64,000 nucleotides of DNA, taken from the IMG/VR virus record IMGVR_UViG_3300037104_000592, positions 18,377-82,376 of that record. One strand, 5' to 3'. The notes under the pieces are model-generated. The model searched no databases, was not told the origin of the DNA, and saw only the letters and a program-made list of their open reading frames with translations. The position numbers and the translations under genes are program-made. Source of the stretch: a virus. Shown here in pieces: positions 18,163-61,351 of the stretch (positions within the stretch are counted from its first letter, which is position 1; each line of letters opens with the position of its first letter).

Positions 18163-18513
18163 ATGAATGAAGAATTTGATGAATGTAATCAATGTAAAAA
18201 TGGAGTTATATATAATAATATAAAATTGTCATATCCTTGTCATAATTGTTTTGATGGAAAAAAATCTTGGTTGGATAGTATAATTAAACCACCAAGAGAA
18301 AAATATCACCGGTTATATCTTAAATATTTCTGGGATAATTTTTATATTTTAAGAAGTGCTATATATAGTGAATGTTCTAAAGTTGGATGTTTTGCAAAAG
18401 TTGAAATTGAACCTAGCAGATATGATAGAGATTTGAAATTTGTAGTTGATAAATCTGTTGCTATAGAATCTGCTACAAATTATATACTAAATAAGGATAA
18501 GGTGAGATTTTGA
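18163..18513 (+). CDS. zinc-finger family paralog of preceding gene
   Basis: CNQCKNG...CHNCFDGKKSWLDSII. Confidence 0.65.
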   Translation: MNEEFDECNQCKNGVIYNNIKLSYPCHNCFDGKKSWLDSIIKPPREKYHRLYLKYFWDNFYILRSAIYSECSKVGCFAKVEIEPSRYDRDLKFVVDKSVAIESATNYILNKDKVRF

Positions 18514-21729: not shown

Positions 21730-21738
21730 AGAACAAAC
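21730..21738 (+). promoter_or_regulatory. candidate phage promoter motif AGAACAAA (copy 1)
   Basis: Intergenic, upstream of AGGAGG RBS; recurs at 35852 and 61311. Confidence 0.4.
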
Positions 21739-21784
21739 AAATATATACATATATTTAAATAAATATATTTAGGAGGACTAGATT

Positions 21785-29617: not shown

Positions 29618-29992
29618 ATGACAATGTTAGAAGAAATTCTAGAAAAAACAAAAACTTTACCCACTGATGATCAATTAAAACAAATTTGTGATCAAATACA
29701 AAAAGAAGAAGAAGAAAAATTTAGAGATTATTTAGGAGAGATGCCAAAAGGACCCAATATGTTTCTAGCAATTTGGGTTCCTGGAATTACAGGAAAAGAA
29801 TTATGTTATGTATGTTTAGAAAGAGAATTTCCTGGTAAATATTTAGTAACTCTTTGGTCTAAATTATCCGAAAAAAGTATAATAAAAAAGAAATCATTAA
29901 TAAGAACAAAAGTTTGGGAAGTTAAAGAAAGCGCTCCAAAAAAGATTTTAGAAGAATATGCTAAAATACTTAAGTTCATGAGAGGAAAATAA
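29618..29992 (+). CDS. hypothetical protein
   Basis: TAATG overlap with E2-like gene. Confidence 0.65.
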   Translation: MTMLEEILEKTKTLPTDDQLKQICDQIQKEEEEKFRDYLGEMPKGPNMFLAIWVPGITGKELCYVCLEREFPGKYLVTLWSKLSEKSIIKKKSLIRTKVWEVKESAPKKILEEYAKILKFMRGK

Positions 29993-32616
29993 TGGCCGAG
30001 CAAATATCACCTATATTTATTGATGAAAATACAATTAAAGAAATATTTATAAATAGAGATTATACAAGACTCATAAGATCTTCTTATGATTCTAAAGCTA
30101 GAGATGTAAAATTGGATGAAACTAAACCAAAACTTGTAACATCTAAGATGAGAACAATAGATTTTTTTAATAAATTAAATAGTACAGATAGTAAACTAAC
30201 AATTCTTCCTAGAAATTGTAGATTTACTAATAAAATAACTGATAGAACAATATACGTAATTGAAGATCCTCCTATGTTAAGAACAGTTAAATTTAATATA
30301 GGATTAGAATCTGAAATTGAAAATTTAAGGAATAATGGTTTACTTACAAAGTTTGGATATGAAAATTTTCTAAATGATAATCCAAGTCCACCTTATAAAA
30401 TACAACTTTCATTCCCGTATGTTATTTATATTATAACTTTTGGGCAACATAATGAATTTTCAAATATGAAGTTATTTTATAGATTGCATCCTTTAACTGG
30501 AATAAAAGATTATTTACTCACAAGTAATTTATTGAATGTAGATTCTAACGGTTCTGTATGTTTAGGTCCACAAAATTCAAAAGATGTTACAGAAGTAAGT
30601 GATAAAGTAGATAATATTATAAATTCTTTTTGGGGAAATGAGTTTAATAATGATATTACACATTCATATTTATCATATTCTAATCAAAGAGAAATTTCTA
30701 CAATTCTAGCGTGGAAATATTATTCGAAAGTTGATCCAATGTTTATATTTGATGTGGAGTGGATAAAAAATACATATAATTTAGACTCATTTTTAAATTT
30801 TAAAAATTCTGGTGATGATATAAGAAGTTGTGAAAATATAATGTATAAACTTGAAGAGTATATTTTATATGATAAAGAAGATGAAGGACAAAAAGTTGTT
30901 GATAGAAGATATACTTATACCAGTCTTCCATTATTTGAAGATGAACAAAAGGGTTCTGACTATCTTGTAATTGGAGATGAAATTATATTTGAAGGGAAAA
31001 AATATTTTATATATGAAATAGTTCATGAATCAGATGGAAAAATTATTGTTTCATTGGAAGACGAGAATGGAAAGTTAATTTATAAAAAATATAATACAGA
31101 TTTTAGAGACAAAATAAGAAAAGAAACTTTGAAAAATAAAGAGCTTACAGAAATTAAAATTGATGGTCTTACTGTAAAAAAAGGAACCGTTTTAGAAGCA
31201 TTTGATGGTTATAAAAAGAGATTAAAACATGTACAAAAAATAAGAAAGACCAGAGATGGAAAAATAGAAATACAATGTGAAAAAAGTTTCTACATGATTG
31301 AAGATGGGAGTTTAGCTGGAGTAAAAGTTTTTGATATTAATAATTTAACTATTTCTAATGGTTTAAAAATTGTTAATGGAAATAAGTACATGATTTTTAA
31401 TAATATAACTAATCCTATATTTGATATTCAAACTGGAATTTTTACAGATTTAAAAGTAACTAACGACACTGTCTACTATAATTTTAAATATGTCAGACCT
31501 GCTGATAAAAAAGAATCTACAATTAATTATAGTGGAGATACTCAAACAACTGAAGTTTTTGATTATGATGAAAAACTTTTAAATAATTCCATGTTTCCTT
31601 TCTTTAGACTTGGAAAAATGATCATATCAAATATTGATAAAGATTATAAATTTCATATAATTAAAGGAAAAGGTATTGGGGTTACATCTTCTTCGGGTAA
31701 TGTAATTGATAGATATGATTTTGGGAGATATTTAAATTCTGATAAAGATATAAAGGAGAAAATTTTAAAAGATAATAAATTAAGAATTCCATCATTTGAT
31801 TTGGATATAGAATTTGATATTGGTGATAGAGTAGTTATAGCTGATTATTCTAAATCTTTAAAATATATTACTACAATAAGAACTATAACTGGATTTAAAA
31901 TTGCAGGGGATAATCTTTTTGTAGATACTGTAGATGAAAATAATATACCAGAAAGTACTCCTTATATAAATTTTAAAATTTATGATAAAAGTTATATTTA
32001 TTCAAAATCTCCTAAAGTTAATATTGGGTTAATTAGAAAAATAATAGATAATGATTTATTCAAAAGAGGAACTAAAGTAAGACCTAAGGTAAAAGGAATT
32101 TCATCATTTAAGAAAAAAGATGTTCATGAAATAGTTGGACTAATTACAGATACTGGGTCTAAACCTATTATTCTATGTTCAAATGGTCATACAATTTGGT
32201 GTGATGAAAAATCACTTGAAAATTTTGAACTTATAGATAAGAAATCTAAATTATATAATAAATCAAAATTAACAGAAATATTAGAAAATGAAAAAATATA
32301 TTGTAAATTTCAATCTGGAGATTTAGCTGATATTAAAGATGTATATGATAGAACTTCATATGAAGATTCAATTCATCTTTGCGGTATAGGAGCAAATAAT
32401 AGAATAATATTTAAAATTTTAAATTCTTTAAATGTATATGGTTCATATAATAGATCTGGAAGAAGAATTATAAGTCAACAATATCAAACTATTCCTATGC
32501 CAAGATATTTACCAACAACTGAATTAATAAGAGGGATTGGAGTTATTCCTAATTATCATGGTTGGTTTACTATTTCAAATAATTCGCTGTTTAAAATACA
32601 ATTGGAGAAAATATAA
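29992..32616 (+). CDS. prokaryotic E2-like (Prok-E2 D / PRTRC-B type) domain protein with long beta-rich C-terminal extension
   Basis: LSFPYVIY...LFY...L....LLNVDSNGSVCLG...INSFW..EFNND (Cys about residue 190); first gene of E2-JAB-E1-Ubl operon. Confidence 0.75.
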   Translation: MAEQISPIFIDENTIKEIFINRDYTRLIRSSYDSKARDVKLDETKPKLVTSKMRTIDFFNKLNSTDSKLTILPRNCRFTNKITDRTIYVIEDPPMLRTVKFNIGLESEIENLRNNGLLTKFGYENFLNDNPSPPYKIQLSFPYVIYIITFGQHNEFSNMKLFYRLHPLTGIKDYLLTSNLLNVDSNGSVCLGPQNSKDVTEVSDKVDNIINSFWGNEFNNDITHSYLSYSNQREISTILAWKYYSKVDPMFIFDVEWIKNTYNLDSFLNFKNSGDDIRSCENIMYKLEEYILYDKEDEGQKVVDRRYTYTSLPLFEDEQKGSDYLVIGDEIIFEGKKYFIYEIVHESDGKIIVSLEDENGKLIYKKYNTDFRDKIRKETLKNKELTEIKIDGLTVKKGTVLEAFDGYKKRLKHVQKIRKTRDGKIEIQCEKSFYMIEDGSLAGVKVFDINNLTISNGLKIVNGNKYMIFNNITNPIFDIQTGIFTDLKVTNDTVYYNFKYVRPADKKESTINYSGDTQTTEVFDYDEKLLNNSMFPFFRLGKMIISNIDKDYKFHIIKGKGIGVTSSSGNVIDRYDFGRYLNSDKDIKEKILKDNKLRIPSFDLDIEFDIGDRVVIADYSKSLKYITTIRTITGFKIAGDNLFVDTVDENNIPESTPYINFKIYDKSYIYSKSPKVNIGLIRKIIDNDLFKRGTKVRPKVKGISSFKKKDVHEIVGLITDTGSKPIILCSNGHTIWCDEKSLENFELIDKKSKLYNKSKLTEILENEKIYCKFQSGDLADIKDVYDRTSYEDSIHLCGIGANNRIIFKILNSLNVYGSYNRSGRRIISQQYQTIPMPRYLPTTELIRGIGVIPNYHGWFTISNNSLFKIQLEKI

Positions 32617-33644
32617 TGTTTAAAATAGTTTGTTTAGATGGAACACAAAAAATACCAGAAGATGATATTTGTTATATTATAGCTAAGGGTGGGGTATATC
32701 TTAAGAAAAAAGTTGGAATGATTGAATCTTTAGCTCCAGTAAAGAATATTTCAATTTTAGAAGATGTTCAACCATATGCTAAAATGAATATTCCAAAAAT
32801 CTCTGGTGAAGATTTTGGAAAAGTTATGAGTTTTTTCAAAAAAGTTTATGAAGAACATAAATCTGAAGCAATAGTTCTTTTATATTATAATCCAAAAAAA
32901 GCAACTTATAAATTTTATGTTCCACATCAAAAAGTAAGTGGTGCTGGAGTTGATTATGTAAAAGGAGTTTCTATAGCAAATCATATTCAAGTAGGAACTA
33001 TTCATAGTCATGCTAATTTTTCAGCATTTCATTCTGGAACAGATGATAGTGATGAAGAACATTTTGATGGAATTCATATAACAATTGGTGATAACACCGA
33101 TGCTTTTCCATCTATCACTGCATCAATTGTTATAAATGGAACCAGATTTACAATAAATCCTATTGATTATGTAACAAAAATGGAAATTGTAGAATATACT
33201 AATTATTTTCCTCATATGTTCAGACCATCTTTCACAGAAATAAATGGAGTCAGAGAATATAAATCTAATGTAAAAACTCAACTTGGATATCAGCTAATGA
33301 TTTCAGACCAAGATAAAAAATTTAATGAAGCATGGTTAAAAATGATTGAGAATGTTAGACCTACTATAACTAATATCCCATTTTATACACAAGAACACTA
33401 TTTGGATTTATTTGATCCTAATAGAAAAGATAAGCAAGACAGATCTTATAGATACACATGGACTCCAGGTTCTACTAAAAAGAATAATCGTCCTGCTTAT
33501 AATCCTTGTGAAAGTTGTGTTTTTAAAAAATATAAATCAGACGATGAAAGAAAATCAATAACACAAGAGGACATACAACAAAGTTTCTCTGATATTTGGG
33601 ATGATTATAATGTGTATGATGATCCTTGGGGAAATTTAATATGA
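32616..33644 (+). CDS. JAB/JAMM metallopeptidase (deubiquitinase-like)
   Basis: SEA (catalytic Glu), GTIHSHANFSAFHSGTDDSDE = HxH-x7-S-x2-D, GIHITIG. Confidence 0.9.
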   Translation: MFKIVCLDGTQKIPEDDICYIIAKGGVYLKKKVGMIESLAPVKNISILEDVQPYAKMNIPKISGEDFGKVMSFFKKVYEEHKSEAIVLLYYNPKKATYKFYVPHQKVSGAGVDYVKGVSIANHIQVGTIHSHANFSAFHSGTDDSDEEHFDGIHITIGDNTDAFPSITASIVINGTRFTINPIDYVTKMEIVEYTNYFPHMFRPSFTEINGVREYKSNVKTQLGYQLMISDQDKKFNEAWLKMIENVRPTITNIPFYTQEHYLDLFDPNRKDKQDRSYRYTWTPGSTKKNNRPAYNPCESCVFKKYKSDDERKSITQEDIQQSFSDIWDDYNVYDDPWGNLI

Positions 33645-34345
33645 GATTTAATGATATTTCTATAGTGGGTTTGGGTGGAATAGGCTCAATTTTAAGTAAT
33701 ACTATTTCAAGATTTATAAGTAACGATGCTAGAGAAAATGATCCAAGACAAATTATAAATTTAATTGATGGAGATTATTATGAAGAAAAAAACTTAGTTA
33801 GACAAGAATTTTTAAGATTTGGAAATAAAGCAGAATCTAAATTAAATGAATTAAGACCAAAATTTAATAATATTGAATTTAAAGATTATCCATATTTTAT
33901 AGATGATATAACTATTTCTAGAATAATTAAAGATAAAGATTTAGTATTTTTAGCAGTTGATAATCATAAAACAAGAAAATTAGTAAGTGATTATGCAAAA
34001 AAACTAAATGATATAATTATAATTTCAGGAGGAAATGAGCTAGAAGATGGTAATGTTCAATTGTATATTAGAAAAGATGGAGAAGATGTTACTCCATCTT
34101 TAACTGATTATCATCCAGAAATCAGAAACCCAATTGATAAATTACCAAATGAAATGAGCTGCGAAGAGTTACAAAACTCTGAACCACAACTATATTTTAC
34201 AAATTTAGGAGTGGCAACTTTTATGGCTTTTGCATTTTACAATGTCCTAAAAGGCTCAAATAATTTTTCAGAAGTATATTTTGATATGAACACAATGAAA
34301 GCTGATTCAAAAACAAGAAACTTAAAAAAAGAAAAAGGAGAGTAA
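33641..34345 (+). CDS. E1 / ThiF-family ubiquitin-like activating enzyme
   Basis: VGLGGIGS, IDGD..E.KNLVRQ, NKA, AVDN..TR, SGGN, candidate catalytic Cys in MSCEE. Confidence 0.9.
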   Translation: MRFNDISIVGLGGIGSILSNTISRFISNDARENDPRQIINLIDGDYYEEKNLVRQEFLRFGNKAESKLNELRPKFNNIEFKDYPYFIDDITISRIIKDKDLVFLAVDNHKTRKLVSDYAKKLNDIIIISGGNELEDGNVQLYIRKDGEDVTPSLTDYHPEIRNPIDKLPNEMSCEELQNSEPQLYFTNLGVATFMAFAFYNVLKGSNNFSEVYFDMNTMKADSKTRNLKKEKGE

Positions 34346-34354
34346 GGATTTATT

Positions 34355-34828
34355 ATGGCTAAAAAAGTATATTCGGCAGAGGAACTTTATAACAAAACAG
34401 TATCAGAACTTCGTGAAATGTGTGTTAAGTTTGGGATTACGGGTATGAGTAAAAGGAGAAAAGATGAGATTGTAGATGCTCTTTGTGATTATTATGAAGA
34501 TACAGCACCTGAACCCCAAGTTAAAACACCAGTTTCTTCTTCATCTATCGTTTCTATGAATGCTCAACTTTCGAGTTATAGAAACCCCGATTCAAAAAAT
34601 GATGACGATAAATACATCACCAATATTTTTGTGTCTTGCGGCGCAGCTTCTGGAAACTTCCCAGTTGTTGGAAAGAAAGTTGGAGCAGTTGCTGAATTCC
34701 TAAGAGAAGTTCTTAATATCGACCGTTTAAGTGTTGGAGTTGTGAATGGTGAAGAAGTTGAAGATAGTTATCTTCTTGCATCTGGAGATTCTCTTGAATT
34801 TCTAAAAGCAGGTGGTCGTAAAGGTTAA
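34355..34828 (+). CDS. ubiquitin-like (beta-grasp) protein with N-terminal Rho-N/HEH domain
   Basis: N-term L..KTVSELREMC..FGITGMSK.RKDEIVDAL; C-term VVNGEEVEDSYLLASGDSLEFLKAGGRKG ending in Gly. Confidence 0.8.
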   Translation: MAKKVYSAEELYNKTVSELREMCVKFGITGMSKRRKDEIVDALCDYYEDTAPEPQVKTPVSSSSIVSMNAQLSSYRNPDSKNDDDKYITNIFVSCGAASGNFPVVGKKVGAVAEFLREVLNIDRLSVGVVNGEEVEDSYLLASGDSLEFLKAGGRKG

Positions 34829-34873: not shown

Positions 34874-35392
34874 ATGAAAGAAACACTAGATAAGCTTACA
34901 GATGAAGGTGTAAAGCAACTAAAATATTATTATAAGAAAACAAGGCTCTTTGGAAATATTTGCACTGTTTGTTTACTTATTGGAGAAAATAATGAACTTA
35001 TTTCAAGAGGAGTTTCTATTTGTTCATTATTAGATTCTCATAAAAAATCAACAGGAAAAAATATTGCTTTAGGAAGAGCAATAAAAGCTCTAAAAAATAA
35101 GAAAACAACAGATGAAATAAATCCAAATAGAGATTCTTTAACACATTGGATGTATACTAAAAATATAAATAAAAAAGATCCTTATTTTAGCGATATGTTT
35201 GAAGAAATTAAATATAATTGCTTTTCTACAAAACCTTTAAAAATTAATAAAGAAGAAGTTTTAAAAGTTGAAATACCAATGGATTTTCCATTGTATGCAA
35301 CTGTATCATTATTTACACATAAATCTTCATTTAAACCAACTCCTACGGATGAAGAAGTTAAAATAATTGAAAAAAGAAAAAAGTTAGATTAA
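34874..35392 (+). CDS. phage protein with Gp49-like (T.C..G.S.CS..D....G..IA..RA) motif
   Basis: CTVCLL...SRGVSICSLLDSHKKSTGKNIALGRA. Confidence 0.5.
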   Translation: MKETLDKLTDEGVKQLKYYYKKTRLFGNICTVCLLIGENNELISRGVSICSLLDSHKKSTGKNIALGRAIKALKNKKTTDEINPNRDSLTHWMYTKNINKKDPYFSDMFEEIKYNCFSTKPLKINKEEVLKVEIPMDFPLYATVSLFTHKSSFKPTPTDEEVKIIEKRKKLD

Positions 35393-35401
35393 ATTTTTAG
35401 A

Positions 35402-35569
35402 AAAATTGGGGTGGATAATCATACTGAATAAGTGGTTTTGAAACCTGGTACTAAGAAAGAGTGCGAACTCTGGGGCAGGAACCCAGATAGAAGCTTTAGA
35501 TGGCTCGATAGCTGACTGATAGATATTGCACCCAAAGTGCCTTATCCAGTATTATTCCACCCCAATTTT
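35402..35569 (+). ncRNA. candidate structured ncRNA (about 170 nt, multibranch)
   Basis: About 30-bp closing helix (aaaattggggtggataatcatactgaataag / cttatccagtattattccaccccaatttt) enclosing hairpins, including gagt-GCGA-actc; GC-rich relative to genome. Confidence 0.6.
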
Positions 35570-35581
35570 AGGAGATTAAAA

Positions 35582-35824
35582 ATGGGTAGTTATAATCAAG
35601 ATAAAGATGTTTTAATAAAAATGTTTGAAATGATTACAGATGAAAAGGGTTCTTCTCTAATGTTGTCTATTTTTTCATACGACAATGGACCGAAAAAATT
35701 AGCAATGACAAGATCATATAATAAAAAAGATGGATCTGTTGGATATTCTTCAGCAGGTAGATTAAGTCTTATGGAAGTTAATTTTCTAAAAGATAAATTA
35801 GATGAAATAATTAAAGAGATGTAA
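35582..35824 (+). CDS. PC4/YdbC-like ssDNA-binding / transcription cofactor
   Basis: AGGAGA RBS; L.LSIFSYDNGPKKL...R.Y.KKDG....GRLS..E...L pattern. Confidence 0.6.
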   Translation: MGSYNQDKDVLIKMFEMITDEKGSSLMLSIFSYDNGPKKLAMTRSYNKKDGSVGYSSAGRLSLMEVNFLKDKLDEIIKEM

Positions 35825-35851: not shown

Positions 35852-35860
35852 AGAACAAAT
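35852..35860 (+). promoter_or_regulatory. candidate phage promoter motif AGAACAAAT (copy 2)
   Basis: Intergenic, about 10 nt before GGAGGA RBS of second E1. Confidence 0.4.
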
Positions 35861-35880
35861 AAAAGTCGTGGAGGAATAGA

Positions 35881-36756
35881 GTGTATAAAGATATAGCGAT
35901 TATAGGTTTAGGAAGTATAGGAGGTTTTTTATCGAGCAATATCATAAACATAGACACAATAAAATCTTTGGTTTTAGTTGATTATGATAGAGTAGAACTG
36001 GAAAATTTGAAAAATTCAATTTATAAAAAATCAGATGTTGGGAAATTTAAAGTTGAATGTGTATCTTCCGTTATAAAATTGTTCAATAGTGAAATAAATA
36101 TTACAGCAATAAAAGATAGATATATAGAGGGAAAAACAAAAATTCCAAAATGCGATTTAGTTATTGATTGTAGAGATTTTGTTTATGATAGAGGTTCAGA
36201 AATAAATATGAGATTATATATCTCTTCTAGACATTTAATAATTGATTGTAGAAAAGATATAAAATATCAATTACACTATGAAGGAAAATATATAGATACA
36301 TTAACAAAATCTGATATTTATTCTGCTACAGCTAATTTGTCAAGATTGATATTTAATGAAGAATTAAATGATATAATTAAAAACAATTTAGTTCATACAA
36401 TAGATATGGATGAATGCTTAAAATCAAGTGAAGAAACTTTAAATAACTATAATAATAAAATGGAAGTTGTTATGGATTATCATAAAAAGAATGATTGTTT
36501 CATAAATTTTCTTGAAAATGCAGAAAATATAATAAATTTCAATAAAAAAAGTGAAGTGAAAATTTGTCTAAACGATAAAAGATTTCCATTATCTACTAAA
36601 ATAATACCAAAAAATTATATTCAAAATGTAAATGACTTAAGTAAAAATTTTTTATCAATAATACCAGCTAAAAATCATAGTAGTTATATAGTTAAATCAA
36701 TTATAGAAAAAAATATTTGTTATGTAATTTTAATACCAGAAACAGGGGCTGCTTAA
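35881..36756 (+). CDS. second, divergent ThiF/E1-like protein
   Basis: IIGLGSIG, VDYDRVE.ENL, VGKFKV, IDCRD; lacks the RQ of NLxRQ. Confidence 0.75.
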   Translation: MYKDIAIIGLGSIGGFLSSNIINIDTIKSLVLVDYDRVELENLKNSIYKKSDVGKFKVECVSSVIKLFNSEINITAIKDRYIEGKTKIPKCDLVIDCRDFVYDRGSEINMRLYISSRHLIIDCRKDIKYQLHYEGKYIDTLTKSDIYSATANLSRLIFNEELNDIIKNNLVHTIDMDECLKSSEETLNNYNNKMEVVMDYHKKNDCFINFLENAENIINFNKKSEVKICLNDKRFPLSTKIIPKNYIQNVNDLSKNFLSIIPAKNHSSYIVKSIIEKNICYVILIPETGAA

Positions 36757-36758
36757 AA

Positions 36759-37100
36759 ATGAGCATAAAAACTATTACTATTGAGAAAAAAATAACACCA
36801 AGAATTGCTATTTATAAACGAGATGCCTTTGATATTTTAGAGGTTGATCCAGAATTCATGATAAATAAATATGAGATAACTTTAAAAGAATCAAAAGTAG
36901 TTTCTTTAAAATTATTTGCTTTACATCCAAATTGTAATCCAGATACTGGAGAATTTTGTTTAGGTCCTGACATAATTGAAAATCAAGCAAATGAATATCT
37001 TTTAGAAAAAGTTATTCCTTATACACTATCAGTATATAATTTAGATAGTTGTTATTTCAGGCCAAAAAATGGAAAAGTAAAATATGGAATAATGAAATGA
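36759..37100 (+). CDS. small E2/UBC-like conjugating enzyme
   Basis: FALHPNCNPDTGEFCLG matches E2 HPN-x5/6-G-x-(I)C-L; downstream L..YNLDS. Confidence 0.7.
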   Translation: MSIKTITIEKKITPRIAIYKRDAFDILEVDPEFMINKYEITLKESKVVSLKLFALHPNCNPDTGEFCLGPDIIENQANEYLLEKVIPYTLSVYNLDSCYFRPKNGKVKYGIMK

Positions 37101-37119
37101 TTAGAGAGGTGGTGATTAT

Positions 37120-37335
37120 TTGAAAAATGCAACCAGATATAAAGAGAAAGTTATTAATGTTGTATCTGATATTATTGATGAATTAGAACCAATTATAAAA
37201 AAAGCAGGGAATAGTTTTATACACTTTGCTAAAGAGTTATCAGAGGAAAAATTAGAAGAATTATTGAATAAAGGAAAAAATAAAGTAAAAAGCAAATTAA
37301 AAAAAGGAGAAAACAATGCCTCCAAAAAAGAATAA
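37120..37335 (+). CDS. hypothetical protein
   Basis: GAGGTG RBS, TTG start. Confidence 0.5.
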   Translation: MKNATRYKEKVINVVSDIIDELEPIIKKAGNSFIHFAKELSEEKLEELLNKGKNKVKSKLKKGENNASKKE

Positions 37336-37543
37336 GGATAAAGAGCAAAATTTCTTCAATGAATATTTTGAAAAAGAGATGACTAAGTTTGTAGACTCAA
37401 GAATAAAAGAAAACATTGAGAAAGATTCAAGTGAGATAGTTAGTACTTTATTTCCTTATATAGATAAAGTTATAAGTGATAAAATTAAAGAGCATATACA
37501 ATTTTTAGGAGAGACTTTAATAAAAACATTCAAACAGGAGTAA
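37316..37543 (+). CDS. hypothetical protein
   Basis: AGGAGA RBS; directly before beta'. Confidence 0.6.
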   Translation: MPPKKNKDKEQNFFNEYFEKEMTKFVDSRIKENIEKDSSEIVSTLFPYIDKVISDKIKEHIQFLGETLIKTFKQE

Positions 37544-37550
37544 AAACTAA

Positions 37551-40247
37551 ATGCCAAATATATTAAACATAGATAAGTTTTGTGAAAACTTAAAAGGAAT
37601 TTCTTCTTTAAAAGCTATTGATAAAAGAAAATTCCATCCAAATGGATTATTCTCAGAGCAGATATTTGGTCCTTTAAAAAATTATACATGTCAATGTGGA
37701 ATATATCATGGAGTATCCAATGCAGGTGGAACTTGCGAAATATGTGGAGTTGATATTGTTCATAGTATTGAGAGAAGAAGAAGATTTGGAAAAATTGTTC
37801 TACCTTTGAAAGTTGTTAATCCAATTTTTTATGATTTGGTTATAAAATTGGGTGGAAATATATTAAAAAAGAATATAGATGAGTTAATGAAAAATGAAAA
37901 AAGTTATTTATATAAAGATGAAAATGATTATATTGTAGAAACTAAGTTACCCCATCCTACTAATACTCAAATATGGGATAGATCTGAAGCAATTTTTGAA
38001 TTAGTAAATGGACTTGCTACAGAGTTGGGAAATAATGAAAGTGGAATGGGAATTAAAGAATGGGAATTAATAAAAAATAATATTGATTGTTTATTTATTA
38101 AAAATGTTATAGTGTTACCACCTGATTTAAGACCTGCTGCAAAAGGAATGGATAAGAACGATCAACGAATGGATAAGATAAATAGATTTTATGTTCAAAT
38201 TCTTACAAAAAAAGAAAGTATGAGAAATACTCCTATAAATATAGAAACTGATAAAAGCGTATATTACAATTTTTTCAAGCAATTACAGAGAGATGTTAAT
38301 GAATTATATGAACATATTATTTCAAAAATATCCAAGAAAGAAGGTTTAATAAGAGGAAATATTTTAGGGAAGAGAATAGATTTCTCAGGTAGAGCTGTTA
38401 TTGTTCCAGAACCTTCTTTGAAATTAGATGAATGTAGTCTTCCATATTTAATGGTTTTAGAATTATTTAAAATTCAATTATCTAAAAAACTTATAGATTT
38501 AAAACAGTTTAAATTATTAAATGAAGCAATTGATTTTGTTGATAGGTGTATAGAATTATCAGATCCTATTTTATTTAATATTTGTCAAGACATAGTTAAA
38601 AATGAAGTTTGTTTACTTAATAGACAACCAACTTTACATAGATTAGGAATGATTGGATTTAAGATAAAAACTTCTTTAGATAAAGTTATAAAGATACACC
38701 CCCTAGTTTGTCCAGGATTTAATTCGGATTTTGATGGAGATCAAATGGCAGTATATATTCCGATTTCTGATAGGACAAAAGCAGAAGTTAGAGAAAAATT
38801 TATGTCAACTAAAAATTTATCTAATCCTTCAAATGGAAGTTTAATTACTATTCCAAGTCAGGATATGGTTTTAGGAATTTATATGTTGACTACATCATCA
38901 TTTGGAGAAGTTGAATATAAAGGTGAAAAAATAACAATTGGATCCAAAATATTCAATGAATGTTTACCAAGTGATTATCCATTAATAAATGGTTCAATAA
39001 ATAATAAGATCTTAAAAGAAACATTAAATGATATTAAAAATAAATATCCAGATGAAATAGTAACTGAAGTATTAGATAAAATAAAAGAAGTTGGTTTTAG
39101 ATTTTCAACAATATATGGAACCTCAATGTCTTTGAAGCATATTTCAATTGATGGAATTGATAAAATTAAAAATGATATTTATTCATTGGATAATATTCAA
39201 GATCAATTATCTGCAATCTCTAGTAAAAAAACTGAAGATATAATGAGGAAAAACTTTAAATATTCTTATCTTATAGATTCAGGTGCAAGAGGAAAATGGG
39301 ATCAGGTAAGACAAATAATTTTAACAAGAGGATATATTTCTAATTTTCAAGGAGATATTCTCCCAACCCCAATAAAGCATAATTTAATAGAAGGTTTAGA
39401 TCAACAAGAGTTTTTTAATTCAACATACGGTTGTAGAAAAGGATTATTAGATGTTGCATTAAATACAGGTGATTCTGGATATTTATCTAGAAAATTAATT
39501 TTCACTTGTGTTAACTTAATAATTGGGGAAGAAGATGATTGTGGAACAACAGATTATCTTGATATATTAGTTACTAGTGAAAAGAAAGCAAAAATGTTAA
39601 TTGGAAGATATTATTTAAATGATGGAAATTTATCTGAAATAACAGTTGAAAATCATAAAGGATTTGTTGGAAAATTAATTCAACTTAGAAGTCCTATTTT
39701 CTGTAAAAATGAAGAACTATGTCATAAATGTTATGGAAACTTATATAAAAATTTACATAGTAAGTTTGTAGGAATTATAGCTGCTCAAGCATGTGGAGAA
39801 GCTGGAGTTCAGCTAATTTTGAGAACATTCCATACAAGTGGTGTAGCAAAGATTTCGGAAGATCAAACAGATATGAGACAGTCAGATATCGTAAGTGATT
39901 TATCTTCTGTATCAAAAGTTCTTCATAATAAAGATAAAAAGGAATATAAAGAATTAGTTTCTAATTTATTTGACTTATATATTATAAATAGAGATATTCA
40001 CCATATTCATTTTGAATGTATAATTTCTCAAATGATGTGGAAAGGTTTTAGAAAATGGAGACTTCTACCAAATAGAGATAAAATTTCTTCAGACTATTAT
40101 TCAATTCAAACAGTTCCTGAAAAAGAAAGTTGGATTGTAGGATTAGCTTTCTCAAATCCAAAAAACCATATTTTAAAAGGAATTGTTCAAGATGGAAATT
40201 ATAAAGGAATTTTTGATAAAATAATGCTAGGAGAAATACCTAGATAA
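37551..40247 (+). CDS. rpoC: DNA-directed RNA polymerase beta' subunit (compact, 898 aa)
   Basis: GLFSEQIFGP..CQCG..CEICG, LPPDLRP, R.NILGKRIDFSGRAVI, NRQPTLHR, catalytic NSDFDGDQM, PSQDM, SGARG, RKGL.D.A..T..SGYL.RKL, AAQ..GE..QL..RTFH. Confidence 0.96.
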   Translation: MPNILNIDKFCENLKGISSLKAIDKRKFHPNGLFSEQIFGPLKNYTCQCGIYHGVSNAGGTCEICGVDIVHSIERRRRFGKIVLPLKVVNPIFYDLVIKLGGNILKKNIDELMKNEKSYLYKDENDYIVETKLPHPTNTQIWDRSEAIFELVNGLATELGNNESGMGIKEWELIKNNIDCLFIKNVIVLPPDLRPAAKGMDKNDQRMDKINRFYVQILTKKESMRNTPINIETDKSVYYNFFKQLQRDVNELYEHIISKISKKEGLIRGNILGKRIDFSGRAVIVPEPSLKLDECSLPYLMVLELFKIQLSKKLIDLKQFKLLNEAIDFVDRCIELSDPILFNICQDIVKNEVCLLNRQPTLHRLGMIGFKIKTSLDKVIKIHPLVCPGFNSDFDGDQMAVYIPISDRTKAEVREKFMSTKNLSNPSNGSLITIPSQDMVLGIYMLTTSSFGEVEYKGEKITIGSKIFNECLPSDYPLINGSINNKILKETLNDIKNKYPDEIVTEVLDKIKEVGFRFSTIYGTSMSLKHISIDGIDKIKNDIYSLDNIQDQLSAISSKKTEDIMRKNFKYSYLIDSGARGKWDQVRQIILTRGYISNFQGDILPTPIKHNLIEGLDQQEFFNSTYGCRKGLLDVALNTGDSGYLSRKLIFTCVNLIIGEEDDCGTTDYLDILVTSEKKAKMLIGRYYLNDGNLSEITVENHKGFVGKLIQLRSPIFCKNEELCHKCYGNLYKNLHSKFVGIIAAQACGEAGVQLILRTFHTSGVAKISEDQTDMRQSDIVSDLSSVSKVLHNKDKKEYKELVSNLFDLYIINRDIHHIHFECIISQMMWKGFRKWRLLPNRDKISSDYYSIQTVPEKESWIVGLAFSNPKNHILKGIVQDGNYKGIFDKIMLGEIPR

Positions 40248-40268
40248 AAAATTTTAACACCTCAGGAG

Positions 40269-43200
40269 GTGAAATTAGTGGATATAATAAATCCAAACTA
40301 TAAAATAAATGAAGAAAACAATATATTTTCAATAAGAGAAAAAGAATATAACTTAATAAAAGATAATGTAAGAGAAATTTTAAAAGCAGCAGAAGAAGTT
40401 GGTTTTTTAGTTAATGAACTTGGAATAACGGAATCTAAATTCTCATCTGGAGAATTACAGAAAACATTAAAGAAAAATTTAGTTATAAAATTAAGACGAG
40501 GATCTTCTGACATAGACTTATCTATGGCTATTCCAAAATTAATTGATAAAAATTATGTTATAATTGGAGGAAGGAAAAAAGTTCCTTTATTTCAATTATT
40601 TGATATTCCTGTAGTTACAAGAGGAAAAACTATAAAAATCAGAACCAATGTAGCAAGTATGATGATAGTAGATGAAAAAGAATTTCCATTTATTCATCTA
40701 TCAATTTTTAATAAAAAAGTTCCATTGTCCTTAGTCATATTTGCTTACTATGGTTTAGAAGAAACAAAAAATAAATTTAGTTTAGATAAAATAGAAATTC
40801 CTGAAATAAAAACTTTACATGATAAATTAATGACAGATTTAAAAGATTTTTATGAAGGATCAGAAGGGTTTACAAAAGAAGAATTTATCAAAGAAGTTGG
40901 TAAATTCTTCTCAACAAATGATGCAAAAAATAAAGGTGAAGATTTAATTTATGCTCTAGATCTTATTTTAAAGACCGATATAATGTCAGCTAAATTTTTC
41001 AAAACTGGAAACATTTTAGATGAAATTGTTGAGGTTATTAAATTAGGTGGTTATGATGATACTGATTTAAGAAATAAAAGAGTAAGGTGTTTTGAATATG
41101 TAATTTTAGCTAAAGTATCTAAAGCAATATTTGATCTATGTATGTCAAATAGATCAACCACAAGACAAGCTAAATTTAATGTAAATTCCAGTCAAATTTT
41201 ATCAGATTGTAATGTTTCAGATATTGTTCAATTTGATTTTTCAATAAATCCAATTGAACAATTAACAAAATTAACAAGAACAAGTTTGGTTGGTCCTGGT
41301 GGGTTTGACAGAGAAAATGTTCCAGAATATCTAAGAGATATTAATCCATCAATGTTTGGAAGAATTTGTCCTGTTGATACTCCTGATAGAGATAACTGTG
41401 GAATATTACAAAGTTTATTACCAAATACACCATTAGATGAAAATTTAAAATTTACAGATGAATCATTAGAAAAATCACCTATTTCTATTCCAGTTTCTTT
41501 AGTTCCATTTTTAGAACATGATGATCAAACTAGATTACAAATGGCATCATCACAAATGAGACAGTCTATTATGTTATCAGAGTTTGAAGTTCCTATGGTT
41601 CAATCGGGATGTGAAGGGTTATATACAGATCATAGTAGCTTTATAAAAAAGGCTAGAAAAAATGGAAAAGTATCTTATGTAGATCAGTTTAATATAATTA
41701 TTGTTTATGATGATAATGATTATGATATTTTTGATGTATCAAATAGAAGAATATATGTTGAAAATATGGATGTTATGAACATATATGTTTCTAAAGGAGA
41801 TAAAGTTAAAAAAGGAACGATTATTGCTGAAAGTAATTATTGTAAAGATGGAAAAATAAATTTTGGAAGAAATTTATTAACAGCTGTTATGCCATATTAT
41901 GGATATAATTATGAGGATGCAATTGTTATTTCTGATAGATTAGTAAAAGAAAATATTTTTACATCTATTCATTATATTGATTTATCATTTGTATTACCAG
42001 CAGATAAAATTTTACTTAGTTTAGAAAAAGATAAATATAAACCCCTTCCAACTCCAAAACCATATATAGATTTGGAAGAAGGAATTACAGAAGAAGAAAA
42101 AAGAAAAAGAAAAAGAGAATTAGTTTTAAAGGGTCAACATTATGCTATAATTAAACAAATTCCATCTACTACTTTGGATTACAATTCTATTTTCGAGGAA
42201 GAGATACCTTTAACTGCTAAAAGAGATATTTTAGTAACTGAAGTAAATATTTATCCTAATAAATGGAATGACTCAATTCCAAAATTTAATGAATGGATAG
42301 ATAAAAAATCTAAAGAACAAATAGATCAAGAGAATAAATTTAAGAGAATTATTTATGAAAATCTACCAAAAAGAAATGCTGATCAATATATAAGAGATCA
42401 TAATCTAGATAGATTTTCTCATATTGGAAAGTTTAAAATTAAAGGTGAAGAAATAAAAGGAACTTTAATTGAGATGTTTGGTTTTTATGTTAGACCAATT
42501 ACTATTGGAGATAAGATTGGAAACAGACATGGAAATAAAGGTGTAATTTCAAAAATAGTTCCACATAATCTTATGCCTAAATTAGAAGATGGAAGAAATG
42601 TTGATATATGTATAAATCCTTTAGGTGTTCCTTCGAGAATGAATGTTGGTCAAATATTTGAGTTACATTCTGCAATGTCTTTATATGATTTAAAAAAGAC
42701 TATGTTAAAAATGATAAAAGAAGGAAAATCCAAAGACGAATTGAAAACATATATTTTAAATTATATTAAAATCATTGATAATACAGAAAATAATTGGTAT
42801 TATAAACAGTTTGAAAAAAATATAAAAACTATAAATAAAAAGTTTATAGAAGATCTTACTATTCTTGCTCCACCATTTGAATCATCAACTAGAAAAATGA
42901 TATTAGATGCTTGTGAATATACAAATACCAAAACTGAATTTAAAGTATACGAACCATATGAAAAAATTGATATTCATGATATAGCTTGTGGGTTTATATA
43001 TTTCTTTAGAATGGTTCACATAGCTGAAAATAGATTAGCAGCTAGAGGGATTGGTTCATATGGAAGAAGAACAATGCAACCAGGTGGTGGTCGTAAACAC
43101 AAAGGAGGACAACGTTGTGGAGAGATGGAAATCGCAGCAATCATTGCTCATGGTGGACTTGAAAATCTATATGAAACTTTAACAACCAAGTCAGATTGTA

Positions 43201-43334
43201 TAGATCTTAAAAATAAACATATTAAGCAAGAAATAGGATCAGATTTCTTTAGAGAAAAAGAAGGAGATATTATAAAACCTGAAGCAGTTCAGCTTTTAGA
43301 GAATTATCTAACTGTTTTGGGTATAGAAAAATAA
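40269..43334 (+). CDS. rpoB: DNA-directed RNA polymerase beta subunit-like, copy 2
   Basis: GPGG, GRICPVDTP, PFLEHDD..R..M...MRQ, GYNYEDAI, GDKIGNRHGNKG, NPLGVPSRMNVGQ, GGQRCGEME. Confidence 0.95.
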   Translation: MKLVDIINPNYKINEENNIFSIREKEYNLIKDNVREILKAAEEVGFLVNELGITESKFSSGELQKTLKKNLVIKLRRGSSDIDLSMAIPKLIDKNYVIIGGRKKVPLFQLFDIPVVTRGKTIKIRTNVASMMIVDEKEFPFIHLSIFNKKVPLSLVIFAYYGLEETKNKFSLDKIEIPEIKTLHDKLMTDLKDFYEGSEGFTKEEFIKEVGKFFSTNDAKNKGEDLIYALDLILKTDIMSAKFFKTGNILDEIVEVIKLGGYDDTDLRNKRVRCFEYVILAKVSKAIFDLCMSNRSTTRQAKFNVNSSQILSDCNVSDIVQFDFSINPIEQLTKLTRTSLVGPGGFDRENVPEYLRDINPSMFGRICPVDTPDRDNCGILQSLLPNTPLDENLKFTDESLEKSPISIPVSLVPFLEHDDQTRLQMASSQMRQSIMLSEFEVPMVQSGCEGLYTDHSSFIKKARKNGKVSYVDQFNIIIVYDDNDYDIFDVSNRRIYVENMDVMNIYVSKGDKVKKGTIIAESNYCKDGKINFGRNLLTAVMPYYGYNYEDAIVISDRLVKENIFTSIHYIDLSFVLPADKILLSLEKDKYKPLPTPKPYIDLEEGITEEEKRKRKRELVLKGQHYAIIKQIPSTTLDYNSIFEEEIPLTAKRDILVTEVNIYPNKWNDSIPKFNEWIDKKSKEQIDQENKFKRIIYENLPKRNADQYIRDHNLDRFSHIGKFKIKGEEIKGTLIEMFGFYVRPITIGDKIGNRHGNKGVISKIVPHNLMPKLEDGRNVDICINPLGVPSRMNVGQIFELHSAMSLYDLKKTMLKMIKEGKSKDELKTYILNYIKIIDNTENNWYYKQFEKNIKTINKKFIEDLTILAPPFESSTRKMILDACEYTNTKTEFKVYEPYEKIDIHDIACGFIYFFRMVHIAENRLAARGIGSYGRRTMQPGGGRKHKGGQRCGEMEIAAIIAHGGLENLYETLTTKSDCIDLKNKHIKQEIGSDFFREKEGDIIKPEAVQLLENYLTVLGIEK

Positions 43335-43339
43335 TTAAT

Positions 43340-43375
43340 TGGGAGATTAATTGTGAAATTAATCTCCCACATTTT
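43340..43375 (+). terminator. hairpin terminator after beta'/beta
   Basis: tgggagattaatt-GTGA-aattaatctccca then catttt. Confidence 0.65.
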
Positions 43376-43561
43376 ATGGTGAAAAATATGCCTTGCAATT
43401 TATGTAAAGGGTTTGGATATGAAAAATGGTTTATATATAATCCTGGTTCTAGTCAAGCAATTATTGAACCACGTGATTGTCCAGAATGTAAAGGAACTGG
43501 ATTAGATTGGACTGATATAATCTTAGAAAAACCAGAACTATATAATAGTAAAATATATTAG
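43376..43561 (+). CDS. DnaJ-like CxxCxGxG zinc-finger family protein
   Basis: CNLCKGFG...CPECKGTGLDWTDII. Confidence 0.65.
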   Translation: MVKNMPCNLCKGFGYEKWFIYNPGSSQAIIEPRDCPECKGTGLDWTDIILEKPELYNSKIY

Positions 43562-43573
43562 ATGGTGTAATAG

Positions 43574-43813
43574 ATGGTTTTAATATGTAAAAAATGTAAC
43601 GGAGCAGGAAAAAAATTAAAAACTGAACTAATTCATAAACATTCATTTCCAGTATATCCAAGAGATTATAGATCATATTCTGCTGGTCCTTGTAAACTAT
43701 GTAATGGAAATTCTTGGTATTATGTTAATTGGGTAGATTTAGTTTTAGAATATCCAGATTTATATAATAAAAAAATATATAGGTTAGAAGAAGATGAAAT
43801 GTCCGTTTTGTAA
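43574..43813 (+). CDS. zinc-finger family paralog
   Basis: CKKCNGAG...CKLCNG...WVDLV; tail LEYPDLYNKKIY resembles previous gene. Confidence 0.65.
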   Translation: MVLICKKCNGAGKKLKTELIHKHSFPVYPRDYRSYSAGPCKLCNGNSWYYVNWVDLVLEYPDLYNKKIYRLEEDEMSVL

Positions 43814-43979
43814 TAAAGGGTTTTATGAATATATAGCAGGAAGTGAAAAAACTGATTTTAATATTAATGATATAAATCCTGATAATATAATATATAAAAA
43901 AGCAAAGTGTATAGTATGTAAAGGCTCTGGAATTTTGGATTGGGTTGATTCAATTATATATGGTTATATGGGAGAATAA
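43794..43979 (+). CDS. zinc-finger family paralog
   Basis: CPFC...CIVCKGSGILDWVDSII. Confidence 0.65.
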   Translation: MKCPFCNKGFYEYIAGSEKTDFNINDINPDNIIYKKAKCIVCKGSGILDWVDSIIYGYMGE

Positions 43980-43981
43980 AT

Positions 43982-44266
43982 ATGCTATGTCCAAGATGCA
44001 ATGGAGTTAAAGAAATAATTGTTGCAAATTTTAATTCTTATTCAGTATTTGAAAGATGTAAAATGTGTAAAGGAACAGGGGAAGCAGATTGGTTAGATAT
44101 AGTAGTATGTGAAAAAAATTCATCATTTTTGTTTGATGAAGAAGAATTTTCATATTTTATTAAAGAAAATGAACCGAACGTTGATATTTTTGCTGTAAAA
44201 GCTCAGATGGAAGAACTATTATCAAGTTCAAAATATAGATATAAAATTCATCATTTAAAAGATTGA
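43982..44266 (+). CDS. zinc-finger family paralog
   Basis: CPRCNG...CKMCKGTGEADWLDIV. Confidence 0.65.
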   Translation: MLCPRCNGVKEIIVANFNSYSVFERCKMCKGTGEADWLDIVVCEKNSSFLFDEEEFSYFIKENEPNVDIFAVKAQMEELLSSSKYRYKIHHLKD

Positions 44267-48853: not shown

Positions 48854-48861
48854 AGGGGAAT

Positions 48862-49025
48862 TAAGCGACATTCAGAAAAAACTACAACTCTTGTTCCCGA
48901 AAGGGACATCCCTTCGTGTTACCCTACACTTTTAAAAAACAATATTGTTGTTAATTTATTATGGGGTTAAAGCGAATATATTGTTGAAACTTGTTGTAAT
49001 CTGTAATTTTTTCTGACGTCGCTTA
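48862..49025 (+). ncRNA. candidate structured RNA (about 165 nt)
   Basis: taagcgac..tcagaaaaaa pairs with ttttttctga..gtcgctta; internal tccc-GAAA-ggga hairpin. Confidence 0.5.
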
Positions 49026-49041
49026 CATTTTCAAAAATATT

Positions 49042-53001: not shown

Positions 53002-53126
53002 AAGATCCGACTTAAGTGTCGGAAGGCTCATACTAGTTAGAGTCTCTGATAGGTATCTGTCGGTCAAATGGTTTGTTCGACCTAACGTCATATTGACTTT
53101 AAAAATAACTTATCAGATGGTCTTTT
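53000..53126 (+). ncRNA. candidate structured RNA / regulatory leader
   Basis: aaaagatc/ggtctttt closure; tccgac..gtcgga, g(g)ctc..gagtc, tctgata..tatcaga, gtca-tat-tgac stems. Confidence 0.45.
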
Positions 53127-53141
53127 TTAAGGATTAAGAAA

Positions 53142-61310: not shown

Positions 61311-61319
61311 AGAACAAAT
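61311..61319 (+). promoter_or_regulatory. candidate phage promoter motif AGAACAAAT (copy 3)
   Basis: Intergenic, upstream of GGAGGA RBS and a putative structural gene. Confidence 0.4.
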
Positions 61320-61320
61320 T

Positions 61321-61351
61321 AAAAATAGAGTGCTTTCTGCTCTATTTTTTT
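61321..61351. terminator. hairpin with A/T tracts
   Basis: aaaaatagag-tgctttctg-ctctattttttt. Confidence 0.5.

Follow-up and report, generated by a model that had tools for sequence, protein, structure and literature searches.

A predicted E1-E2 type gene pair beside the RNA polymerase genes of an uncultured peat jumbo phage and its relatives

Introduction

MoeB, MccB, PaaA and ThiF adenylate the C-termini of proteins or peptides and do so without a catalytic cysteine. In the cyclic-oligonucleotide-based anti-phage signalling system (CBASS) the enzyme's own C-terminal tail is activated and conjugated, with no separate ubiquitin-like protein (Ubl). In E2 enzymes the N-terminal helix 1 is the usual contact with E1 and E3. 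Prokaryotic gene sets with E1, E2, JAB and Ubl genes have been described as PRTRC or operon class 6d (Iyer, Burroughs and Aravind 2006, PMC1779556) and as Bil and Bub (PMC11601596). The E2-like proteins of classes 6c and 6d lack the classical E2 histidine (PMC1779556). BubCD is a further E1 without a catalytic cysteine and Bub acts via oxyesters (PMC11601596). Here we analyzed 64,000 nucleotides (nt) of IMG/VR virus record IMGVR_UViG_3300037104_000592, positions 18,377 to 82,376 (the whole of this stretch is called the window). In it, two adjacent genes encode a 291-amino-acid (aa) E1-like protein, E1b, and a 113-aa E2-like protein, E2s, in front of the genes for the beta' and beta subunits of a phage RNA polymerase.

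In the literature we searched, prokaryotic Ubl conjugation (CBASS Cap2, Bil, Bub, PRTRC/6d) is cellular and largely anti-phage defence, and we found no description of phage-encoded E1/E2 modules or of a virus-only protein-tagging module of this kind. Two modules of this type belong to the core genes of an entire clade of uncultured jumbo phages. One of them, E1b with E2s, is nearly absent from cellular genomes and fixed at what appears to be the head of the phage RNA polymerase operon. Our best explanation, held tentatively and at slightly under even chances, is that E1b and E2s are an E1-E2 type module specific to viruses, self-contained and produced along with the phage beta' and beta subunits. 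If active, the pair would be a very small E1-E2 system for mechanistic work and would raise the question of what a phage gains from tagging proteins during its own transcription programme.

Results and Discussion

E1b carries the residues of an adenylation domain

E1b starts with GTG at 35881 and stops with TAA at 36754-36756. It contains the motifs IIGLGSIGGF, VDYDRVELENLKNS, VGKFKVE and VIDCRD, and its residues 5-101 match Pfam ThiF (PF00899) with 62.9 bits over a cut-off of 28.1 (E 3.3e-17). The second ThiF-like open reading frame (ORF) of the original prediction was thus found with all of its motifs, and the arginine of NLxRQ was absent as claimed. When the E1b family profile was compared to the PDB, MoeB (2e-11), MccB (5e-11) and ThiF (1e-9) scored best, with PaaA likewise close, and Cap2 (5e-6), BubCD (3e-3), Uba5 and Uba1 were more distant. 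We found at least 228 homologues of 280-310 aa. In the ESM Atlas model of the exact E1b protein, residues 1-181 superpose on whole ThiF and MoeB proteins with template modelling (TM) scores of 0.51-0.53, and one cluster of ThiF+ThiS fusions is among the Atlas structural neighbours of this part.

Residues G9, G11, G14, G15, D34, D36, N42, K57, D96, C97, R98, D99 and R104 are invariant in 26 of 26 aligned homologues. The family therefore keeps the GxGxxG loop, the ribose-binding aspartate D34, the phosphate lysine K57 and the Mg-binding residues D96 and D99. Judged by its sequence, such a set of residues is what one expects of an active nucleotide-binding adenylation site and not of a decayed pseudo-E1. 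In place of NLxRQ the family has N-[LIV]-[KR]-N-S; the arginine is missing throughout, and its position falls on a gap or an asparagine in the alignment to MoeB. Canonical thioester-forming E1 enzymes (Uba1, Cap2 and BilD type) have a conserved catalytic cysteine in a crossover loop or in a cysteine domain; we found none in E1b among the 26 sequences. The sole invariant cysteine is C97, within the DCRD Mg motif, and C123 is substituted in several members.

Compared with MoeB, ThiF and MccB (PF00899; 1JW9, 1ZUD, 3H5N), its best sequence matches, E1b has the same GxGxxGG loop, Asp, Lys and DCxD, and likewise no separate catalytic-cysteine domain. It differs in the N-[LIV]-[KR]-N-S segment, in having neither N-terminal Arg-finger helices nor any Zn-binding CxxC pairs that we could see, and in an extra C-terminal domain of about 110 aa (residues 182-291, beyond the ThiF/MoeB core) that ends in ETG(A/G/S)A. 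The E1 domain of type II CBASS Cap2 is also related (PADLOC Cap2 models to 4e-11, covering only 75-100 residues of the E1 half). However, Cap2 is an E2-E1 fusion that stands next to a CD-NTase and Cap3, whereas here the E1 gene comes first and the E2, which is of the HPN type, has a gene of its own. No CD-NTase (cGAS/DncV-like nucleotidyltransferase) or effector was found in the block, and the pair is encoded by a phage, unlike CBASS, a host defence. E1b reached 15.4 bits against PRTRC_ThiF (TIGR03736), whose cut-off is 144.75, and E 0.035 against BilD.

E2s resembles a minimal E2

The ATG of E2s is at 36759, two bases past the TAA of E1b, and the ORF ends at 37100. Residues 56-69 contain HPNCNPDTGEFCLG, which confirms the claim of a 113-aa ORF two nt after E1b with a UBC-like active-site motif. 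An exhaustive HMMER search found relatives of E2s in 131 cluster representatives (E≤1e-3). Alignment of 72 members showed P14, H56 and C67 to be invariant and I26, P57 and N58 to be present in at least 90%, with a further conserved NLDxCYFxPW-like stretch at the C-terminal end. E2s had no match in Pfam, PHROGs, PADLOC, NCBIfam or a PDB sequence search, no clear match in BFVD, and no match besides itself in a word-indexed sequence search; longer, fused forms were not found by alignment search, which is weak evidence on this point.

The likeness to UBC profiles held in part. Pfam UQ_con (PF00179) misses E2s and matches one of the 72 relatives (E 0.017), and a six-frame UQ_con search of the record gave no match. 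The second-best match of the E2s profile in the PDB (E 0.55), however, places HPNxxxxxxxxC on the HPN...Cys of the E2 enzyme Pex4p with identical spacing. The HPN followed by cysteine is common to E2s and the canonical UBC E2 enzymes of eukaryotes and archaea (UQ_con; UbcH7, Ubc9, Pex4p), and Pex4p has the same gap of eight residues.

Modelled with AlphaFold2 from its single sequence, E2s gave a predicted local distance difference test score (pLDDT) of 37; with the 72-sequence alignment the pLDDT was 96.5 and the predicted TM score (pTM) 0.88. In the model, five N-terminal strands are followed by the HPN loop, Cys67, a long helix (79-90) and two short strands. In a Foldseek search of the PDB, E2 enzymes were the top 11 matches and most of the first 50, with E values of at least 0.15 and TM scores of 0.38-0.47. 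An exhaustive alignment of the model to 48,161 chains placed folds of E2 enzymes and ubiquitin E2 variants (UEV) on top (Z 4.8-3.5; VIA was used for the Z scores of E2s). When the 1000 best Foldseek chains were re-aligned to E2s, all 50 of the top 50 were UBC E2 enzymes (Z 4.0-5.0), with 86-93 of the 113 residues aligned at a root-mean-square deviation of 3.4-4.3 A. In most of these alignments residues 1-109 of E2s cover E2 residues from about 30 to 140, that is, the core without helices 1, 3 and 4.

Of the two features that the original prediction called for, the conserved cysteine is present as the invariant C67, and the UBC-type fold is suggested by a minimal UBC-like model with weak Z scores of 4-5. 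Calibration of the tool shows that such Z values are possible from a common arrangement alone, and for this reason we grade the fold evidence as moderate. The E2s model follows canonical E2 enzymes in having a beta-meander, next the HPN loop and next a long helix. In contrast to canonical E2 enzymes, E2s has only 113 aa, lacks helix 1, has an additional N-terminal strand, carries two short strands in place of helices 3 and 4, and was found only in viral contigs. It retains the classical E2 histidine, unlike the class 6c/6d E2-like proteins, and keeps its cysteine, unlike the oxyester-based Bub. Motif, modelled fold and context suggest that E2s resembles a minimal E2, though it lies below the sequence threshold of the family. 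It is the smallest UBC-like protein that we met in this analysis. The pair falls outside Cap2, PRTRC ThiF and UQ_con as these are defined.

The pair is conserved in related viral loci

When IMG/VR was scanned with the E1b alignment, 77 loci were found, on contigs of 10-312 kb. Gene order is common to about 75 of the 77, at 31-60% identity to E1b, and runs 874-aa E2-like protein, JAB, E1a, Ubl, (p172), (p95), E1b, E2s, (p71), (p75), beta', beta. The gene directly downstream of E1b matched the E2s hidden Markov model in 71 of the 77 loci; HPN and the cysteine are kept in all 71, a few of which have insertions in the HPN-Cys loop. Of the loci without a match, L069 ends within E1b, L076 and L077 are too divergent, and L053, L058 and L059 form a subclade that has another gene at this place. 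There the E2s slot (L053:6858-7304, L058:1672-2019, L059:1653-2054) holds a helical, acidic protein of 116-149 aa, and no E2s was found elsewhere on the sole contig that could be searched (35 kb, 8% complete). Given the number of homologues, the invariant residues and the adjacency in 71 of 77 loci, the pair is not a product of chance. The genomes of 185,579 prokaryotic species contained a single match to the family, on a 10-kb contig of a metagenome-assembled genome, and 50,697 GenBank phage records (INPHARED) contained none. This suggests that the family is essentially confined to viruses.

These data also bear on a reading without conjugation, in which E1b would modify a peptide, a cofactor or an RNA, as MccB, PaaA and TcdA do, and E2s would be a non-catalytic or redox partner with a UBC fold, for example an RNA polymerase adaptor. 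MccB, PaaA and TcdA score as high as MoeB and ThiF, or nearly so, in the PDB profile search, E1b has neither the NLxRQ arginine nor a conserved crossover-loop cysteine, the E2 fold match of E2s is weak, and E1b survives without E2s in the subclade described above. However, the HPN...Cys arrangement with its Pex4p-like spacing (H and C invariant, P and N in at least 90%) is hard to explain without E2-like chemistry, the pair adjoins the Ubl/JAB/E1/E2 cassette in every locus, and the block has no small ORF with a conserved C-terminus of the kind expected for a precursor peptide. We therefore consider this reading unlikely.

E1b and E2s covary with each other and not with the upstream cassette

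The cassette upstream of E1b encodes an 874-aa E2-like protein (the big E2), JAB, E1a and a Ubl. Its matches to PRTRC_A and PRTRC_ThiF are weak (E1a has 39 bits, below the cut-off), and E1a is complete, with NLxRQ, a Cys-containing loop and full nucleotide-binding and Mg motifs. Profile comparison found E1b and E1a homologous over the Rossmann half (probability 96%). The upstream pair is thus a PRTRC-like E1 with a Prok-E2_D-like E2, which bears out the claim of two different E1/E2 families in the locus.

We compared pairwise protein distances in the 47 loci that hold all components, with rpoC distances as the phylogenetic control. E1b and E2s gave a partial r of 0.73 with a cubic control and 0.66 with a rank-based one, a value reached by none of 2000 label permutations. 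Under the cubic control, either protein against E1a, Ubl, JAB or the 874-aa protein gave only -0.15 to 0.10, whereas the four upstream proteins among themselves gave 0.27-0.50. E2s against the adenylation domain of E1b reached 0.69, and the two E1b domains against each other 0.54. Other pairs of adjacent genes reached only 0.28-0.41. An artefact of saturation was considered as the source of the E1b-E2s value and rejected: the equally fast-evolving 874-aa protein gives only 0.02-0.04, and both controls hold. Physical co-evolution or joint replacement by recombination would each give this pattern. Whichever the cause, these distances indicate that E1b and E2s are a unit distinct from the upstream cassette, which makes a shared Ubl or a two-tier relay less likely. 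The two-tier cascade of the original prediction was therefore not borne out.

That idea has a broader form, in which E1b and E2s are a second arm or tier that uses the upstream Ubl, either toward other targets or with E2s relaying the Ubl to the 874-aa protein as an E3. The block has a single recognisable Ubl, both modules co-occur in essentially every related contig, the subclade without E2s retains the big E2, and no stop codon separates the Ubl frame from the E1b homologue in the divergent locus L076. On the other hand, the Ubl covaries with its own cassette (0.27-0.46) but not with E1b (-0.14) or E2s (-0.09), nor do these two covary with the big E2 (0.04 and 0.02). The two modules are separated by a hairpin or a promoter-like motif in 39 of 64 loci, and the Ubl has in E1a a complete E1, which makes another one unnecessary. 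The fusion in L076 comes from one contig; its joint contains homopolymer runs, and the E1b part is equipped with its own ribosome-binding site. Taken together, we regard a second arm as improbable, though less so than a reading without conjugation.

In L076 (5629-6855) the Ubl, with a SAP/Rho_N head and a C-terminus truncated relative to the family, reads into an E1b homologue that ends in ...IPAIGGA. GGAG precedes the E1b ATG, and the joint may reflect a sequencing error, or E1b may be initiated separately. In the ORF that follows, H-M-N...ELCIG stands where the family has HPN...FCL.

The two E1-like proteins could also be subunits of a eukaryote-like heterodimeric E1, one catalytic and one supporting, that serves both E2-like proteins. 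E1a and E1b always co-occur and, as noted, are homologous over the Rossmann half. However, the nucleotide-binding and Mg motifs are complete in both, which sets them apart from inactive adenylation domains. Their residual covariation is 0.07-0.19, and many loci have them in different transcription units. We consider a heterodimer very improbable.

E1b and E2s probably share a transcription unit with beta' and beta

The candidate promoter of the original prediction was retained in part. A promoter-like motif, AGAACAAATAAA, lies 18 nt upstream of the E1b start codon, and its form AGAACA[AT]A (the AGAACAAAT motif) is present in the 130 nt before the E1b gene of 18 out of 64 distinct related loci, whose intergenic DNA is otherwise unalignable. 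A scan for sigma-70 promoters, in contrast, found 129 sites where 110 were expected and is uninformative in such AT-rich DNA. AGAACAAAYWAA has three matches in the 64-kb window, all in plus-strand intergenic gaps, where 0.34 were expected and none of 100 shuffles reached three. AGAACAAAYWAA is a possible promoter element for the RNA polymerase that the phage encodes. Its positions are 21730-21741, 35852-35863 and 61311-61322.

A GC-rich hairpin lies within 130 nt upstream of E1b in 21 of the 64 loci, and a hairpin or the motif in 39. Many of these hairpins are followed by A-rich sequence, and an earlier count that required a T-run found only 8 loci, so their role as terminators is presumptive. 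Between the E1b start and the rpoC start, no GC-rich hairpin was found in about 100 kb from the 64 loci. In the window, the plus strand from 35881 to 43340 has no intrinsic terminator-like site with a good stem, and the first such hairpin closes the unit after rpoB. The claim that no evident terminator precedes beta' and beta was therefore upheld, and co-expression with them fits the operon anatomy of the 64 loci. Since boundary signals stand upstream of E1b and none between it and rpoC, the simplest view is that the beta'/beta operon begins with E1b and E2s, apart from the Ubl cassette.

Peat metatranscriptome contigs match parts of E2s (36909-37059), of the Ubl, of p95 and of rpoC at 100% identity, which indicates presence only, with DNA carry-over possible. 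In four RNA runs no contig bridges E1b, E2s and rpoC, and E1b is not covered.

The C-terminal domain of E1b and a possible mechanism

The last 70 or so residues of E1b have a conserved strand-strand-helix-strand-strand pattern in 35 aligned sequences. They end in a tail of the form [LI][IL]PETG[AGS]A, in which G289 is invariant and the terminal alanine is present in every complete family member (L076 ends in ...GGA). Across the whole block, the only conserved C-termini are those of the Ubl (...AGxKG) and of E1b (...ETG[AGS]A), two to match the two intact E1-like enzymes. We applied mean-field direct coupling analysis (mfDCA) to 179 E1b sequences over 291 columns. The pairs S46-Y281 (1.55) and L43-I285 (1.49) were in the top 0.1%, although with an effective sequence number (Neff) of 116 for 291 columns single pairs can be false. 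Other top pairs, A6-C91 and F16-L93, are as the Rossmann sheet predicts, and strand pairings within the C-terminal domain were borderline. From S46-Y281 and L43-I285, the last strand of E1b probably lies against the N-L-K-N-S segment of the adenylation site.

The mechanism that we propose has three steps. E1b, which has the motifs to bind ATP and Mg, would adenylate a C-terminal carboxylate. Cys67 of E2s would then attack the acyl-adenylate directly to give a thioester; we propose direct attack because E1b has no invariant cysteine outside DCRD. Finally, Asn58 of HPN would aid aminolysis by a lysine of the target. Our preferred substrate would be E1b's own tail, ...P-E-T-G-(A/G/S)-A, used in cis or across a dimer. 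This choice is a guarded one; the upstream Ubl is a weaker candidate, and something else altogether is an equally weak one.

Conjugation of its own tail would resemble CBASS and the ThiF-ThiS fusions, which like E1b join an E1-type domain to a small C-terminal domain with a Gly-containing tail. In contrast to these fusions, E1b has no ThiS or Ubl sequence match, ends in G-A-A and not G-G, and is partnered with an E2. In its most speculative form, which we think rather doubtful, E1b would be both enzyme and tag: it would adenylate its own Gly-Ala-Ala tail and pass itself or its C-terminal domain to Cys67 and then onto a target. The pair would then be a minimal conjugation system of two genes, confined to viruses, with a eukaryote-style HPN E2 and no separate Ubl. 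As targets, the probably co-expressed RNA polymerase and the small Lys-rich neighbours are no more than candidates, and the link to the RNA polymerase is one of conserved adjacency and probable co-transcription only.

We set a number of points against the reading of E1b and E2s as an E1-E2 module, in addition to the limit on single coupled pairs given above. Its support consists of sequence and models, and the activities of both proteins are predictions. The NLxRQ arginine is missing from E1b, as are the N-terminal helices seen in MoeB, and its adenylation activity is a prediction. E2s is missed by UQ_con and its UBC match is weak (Z at most 5.0, with the Foldseek values given above). The subclade L053/L058/L059 keeps E1b, ending in ETGGA, without E2s at that position. 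Adjacent genes may share a recombination history, which would inflate their covariation. Comparison of the C-terminal domain of E1b with the phage Ubl by hhalign was negative, as were those with E2s and with E1a; a PDB profile search with this domain gave chance-level matches only, and its structural neighbours in the Atlas are mixed. A terminal alanine instead of glycine is unusual in a Ubl, and a tail near the active site could be autoinhibitory or structural.

Neighbouring genes and possible structured RNAs

The window has about 26% G+C, and its genes are tightly packed on the plus strand. Besides the RNA polymerase genes these include topoisomerase II, SbcC-like and radical-SAM genes. Peat and permafrost metagenomes contain nearly letter-identical DNA. 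The record is a piece of a large viral contig, and an identical protein was found on a 201-kb contig; the source is an uncultured peat jumbo phage. The coordinates of the features are collected in Table 1.

Table 1. Positions of the features in the window
Feature	Position	Strand	Basis or remark
Upstream cassette	29992..34828	+	874-aa E2-like, JAB, E1a, Ubl; NCBIfam PRTRC_A 2e-8 in the cassette; evolves separately
874-aa E2-like protein (big E2)	29992-32616	+	Pfam Prok-E2_D 0.014
JAB	32616-33644	+	Pfam Prok-JAB 4e-4
E1a	33626-34345	+	Pfam ThiF 6e-18; NCBIfam PRTRC_ThiF 6e-10
Ubl with Rho_N/SAP head	34355-34828	+	Pfam Rho_N 7e-7; conserved C-terminus ...AGxKG
Promoter-like motif AGAACAAATAAA	35852..35863	+	18 nt upstream of E1b start codon
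Ribosome-binding site GGAGG of E1b	35870..35874	+	read from sequence; 6 nt 5' of GTG
E1b, 291 aa, ThiF/MoeB-type E1-like	35881..36756 (stop included)	+	Pfam ThiF 3.3e-17
E1b adenylation (Rossmann) domain, residues 1-181	35881..36423	+	ESM Atlas model, invariant residues
E1b C-terminal domain, residues ~221-291, possibly beta-grasp-like	36541..36753	+	conserved strand/helix pattern
E1b tail E-T-G-A-A	36739..36753	+	family pattern [LI][IL]PETG[AGS]A
E2s, 113 aa, minimal UBC-fold E2-like	36759..37100 (stop included)	+	AlphaFold2 model, structural neighbours
Active-site-like motif H56-P57-N58-x8-C67 of E2s	36924..36959	+	conservation, Pex4p profile alignment
Small ORFs of 71 aa and 75 aa, Lys-rich and helical	37120..37543	+	between E2s and rpoC
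RNA polymerase beta' (rpoC)	37551-40247	+	Pfam RNA_pol_Rpb1/Rpb2 domains in beta'/beta
RNA polymerase beta (rpoB)	40269-43334	+	Pfam RNA_pol_Rpb1/Rpb2 domains in beta'/beta
Terminator-like hairpin, 13-bp stem, after rpoB	43340..43369	+	closes unit

The genes for beta' and beta adjoin in every related locus that extends that far. The 71-aa and 75-aa Lys-rich ORFs are conserved among part of the relatives and have no family match. In the Ubl (34355-34828) the family C-terminus is ...L-E-F-[LIV]-K-x-[AGS]-G-x-K-G, and some members have one additional cysteine. The protein here ends in ...GGRKG, but its internal GG is not kept among relatives, and for this reason the conjugation end is likely the terminal glycine and not GG|RKG.

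Directly 3' of rpoB, at 43376-44266, are four tandem ORFs of 61-94 aa, each with two CxxC pairs. Three of the four have at least one pair of the CxxCxGxG type, which we take to be the DnaJ-type zinc-finger pattern, and all four have a conserved ...DW.D... end. The four look like a paralogous array.

A GC-rich gap at 35392-35574, between the 172-aa and 95-aa ORFs, is covered by a peat metatranscriptome contig (run X18, 213 nt, depth 13.6) that joins 35574 back to 35392. The contig consists of 183 nt and a 30-nt overlap, the latter presumably the k-1 overlap of a circular unitig in linear form. A circular or tandem RNA of 183 nt, made from this gap, is thereby suggested. The 183-nt unit folds with -58.1 kcal/mol (z -4.3). 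Neither Rfam, even at E 10, nor a blastn search of the 77 related loci gave a match to it, and Rfam found nothing in the window or around 35250-35750. Two other long intergenic gaps of relatively high GC content, at 48854-49041 and 53002-53141, have visible self-complementary runs and may hold further structured RNAs.

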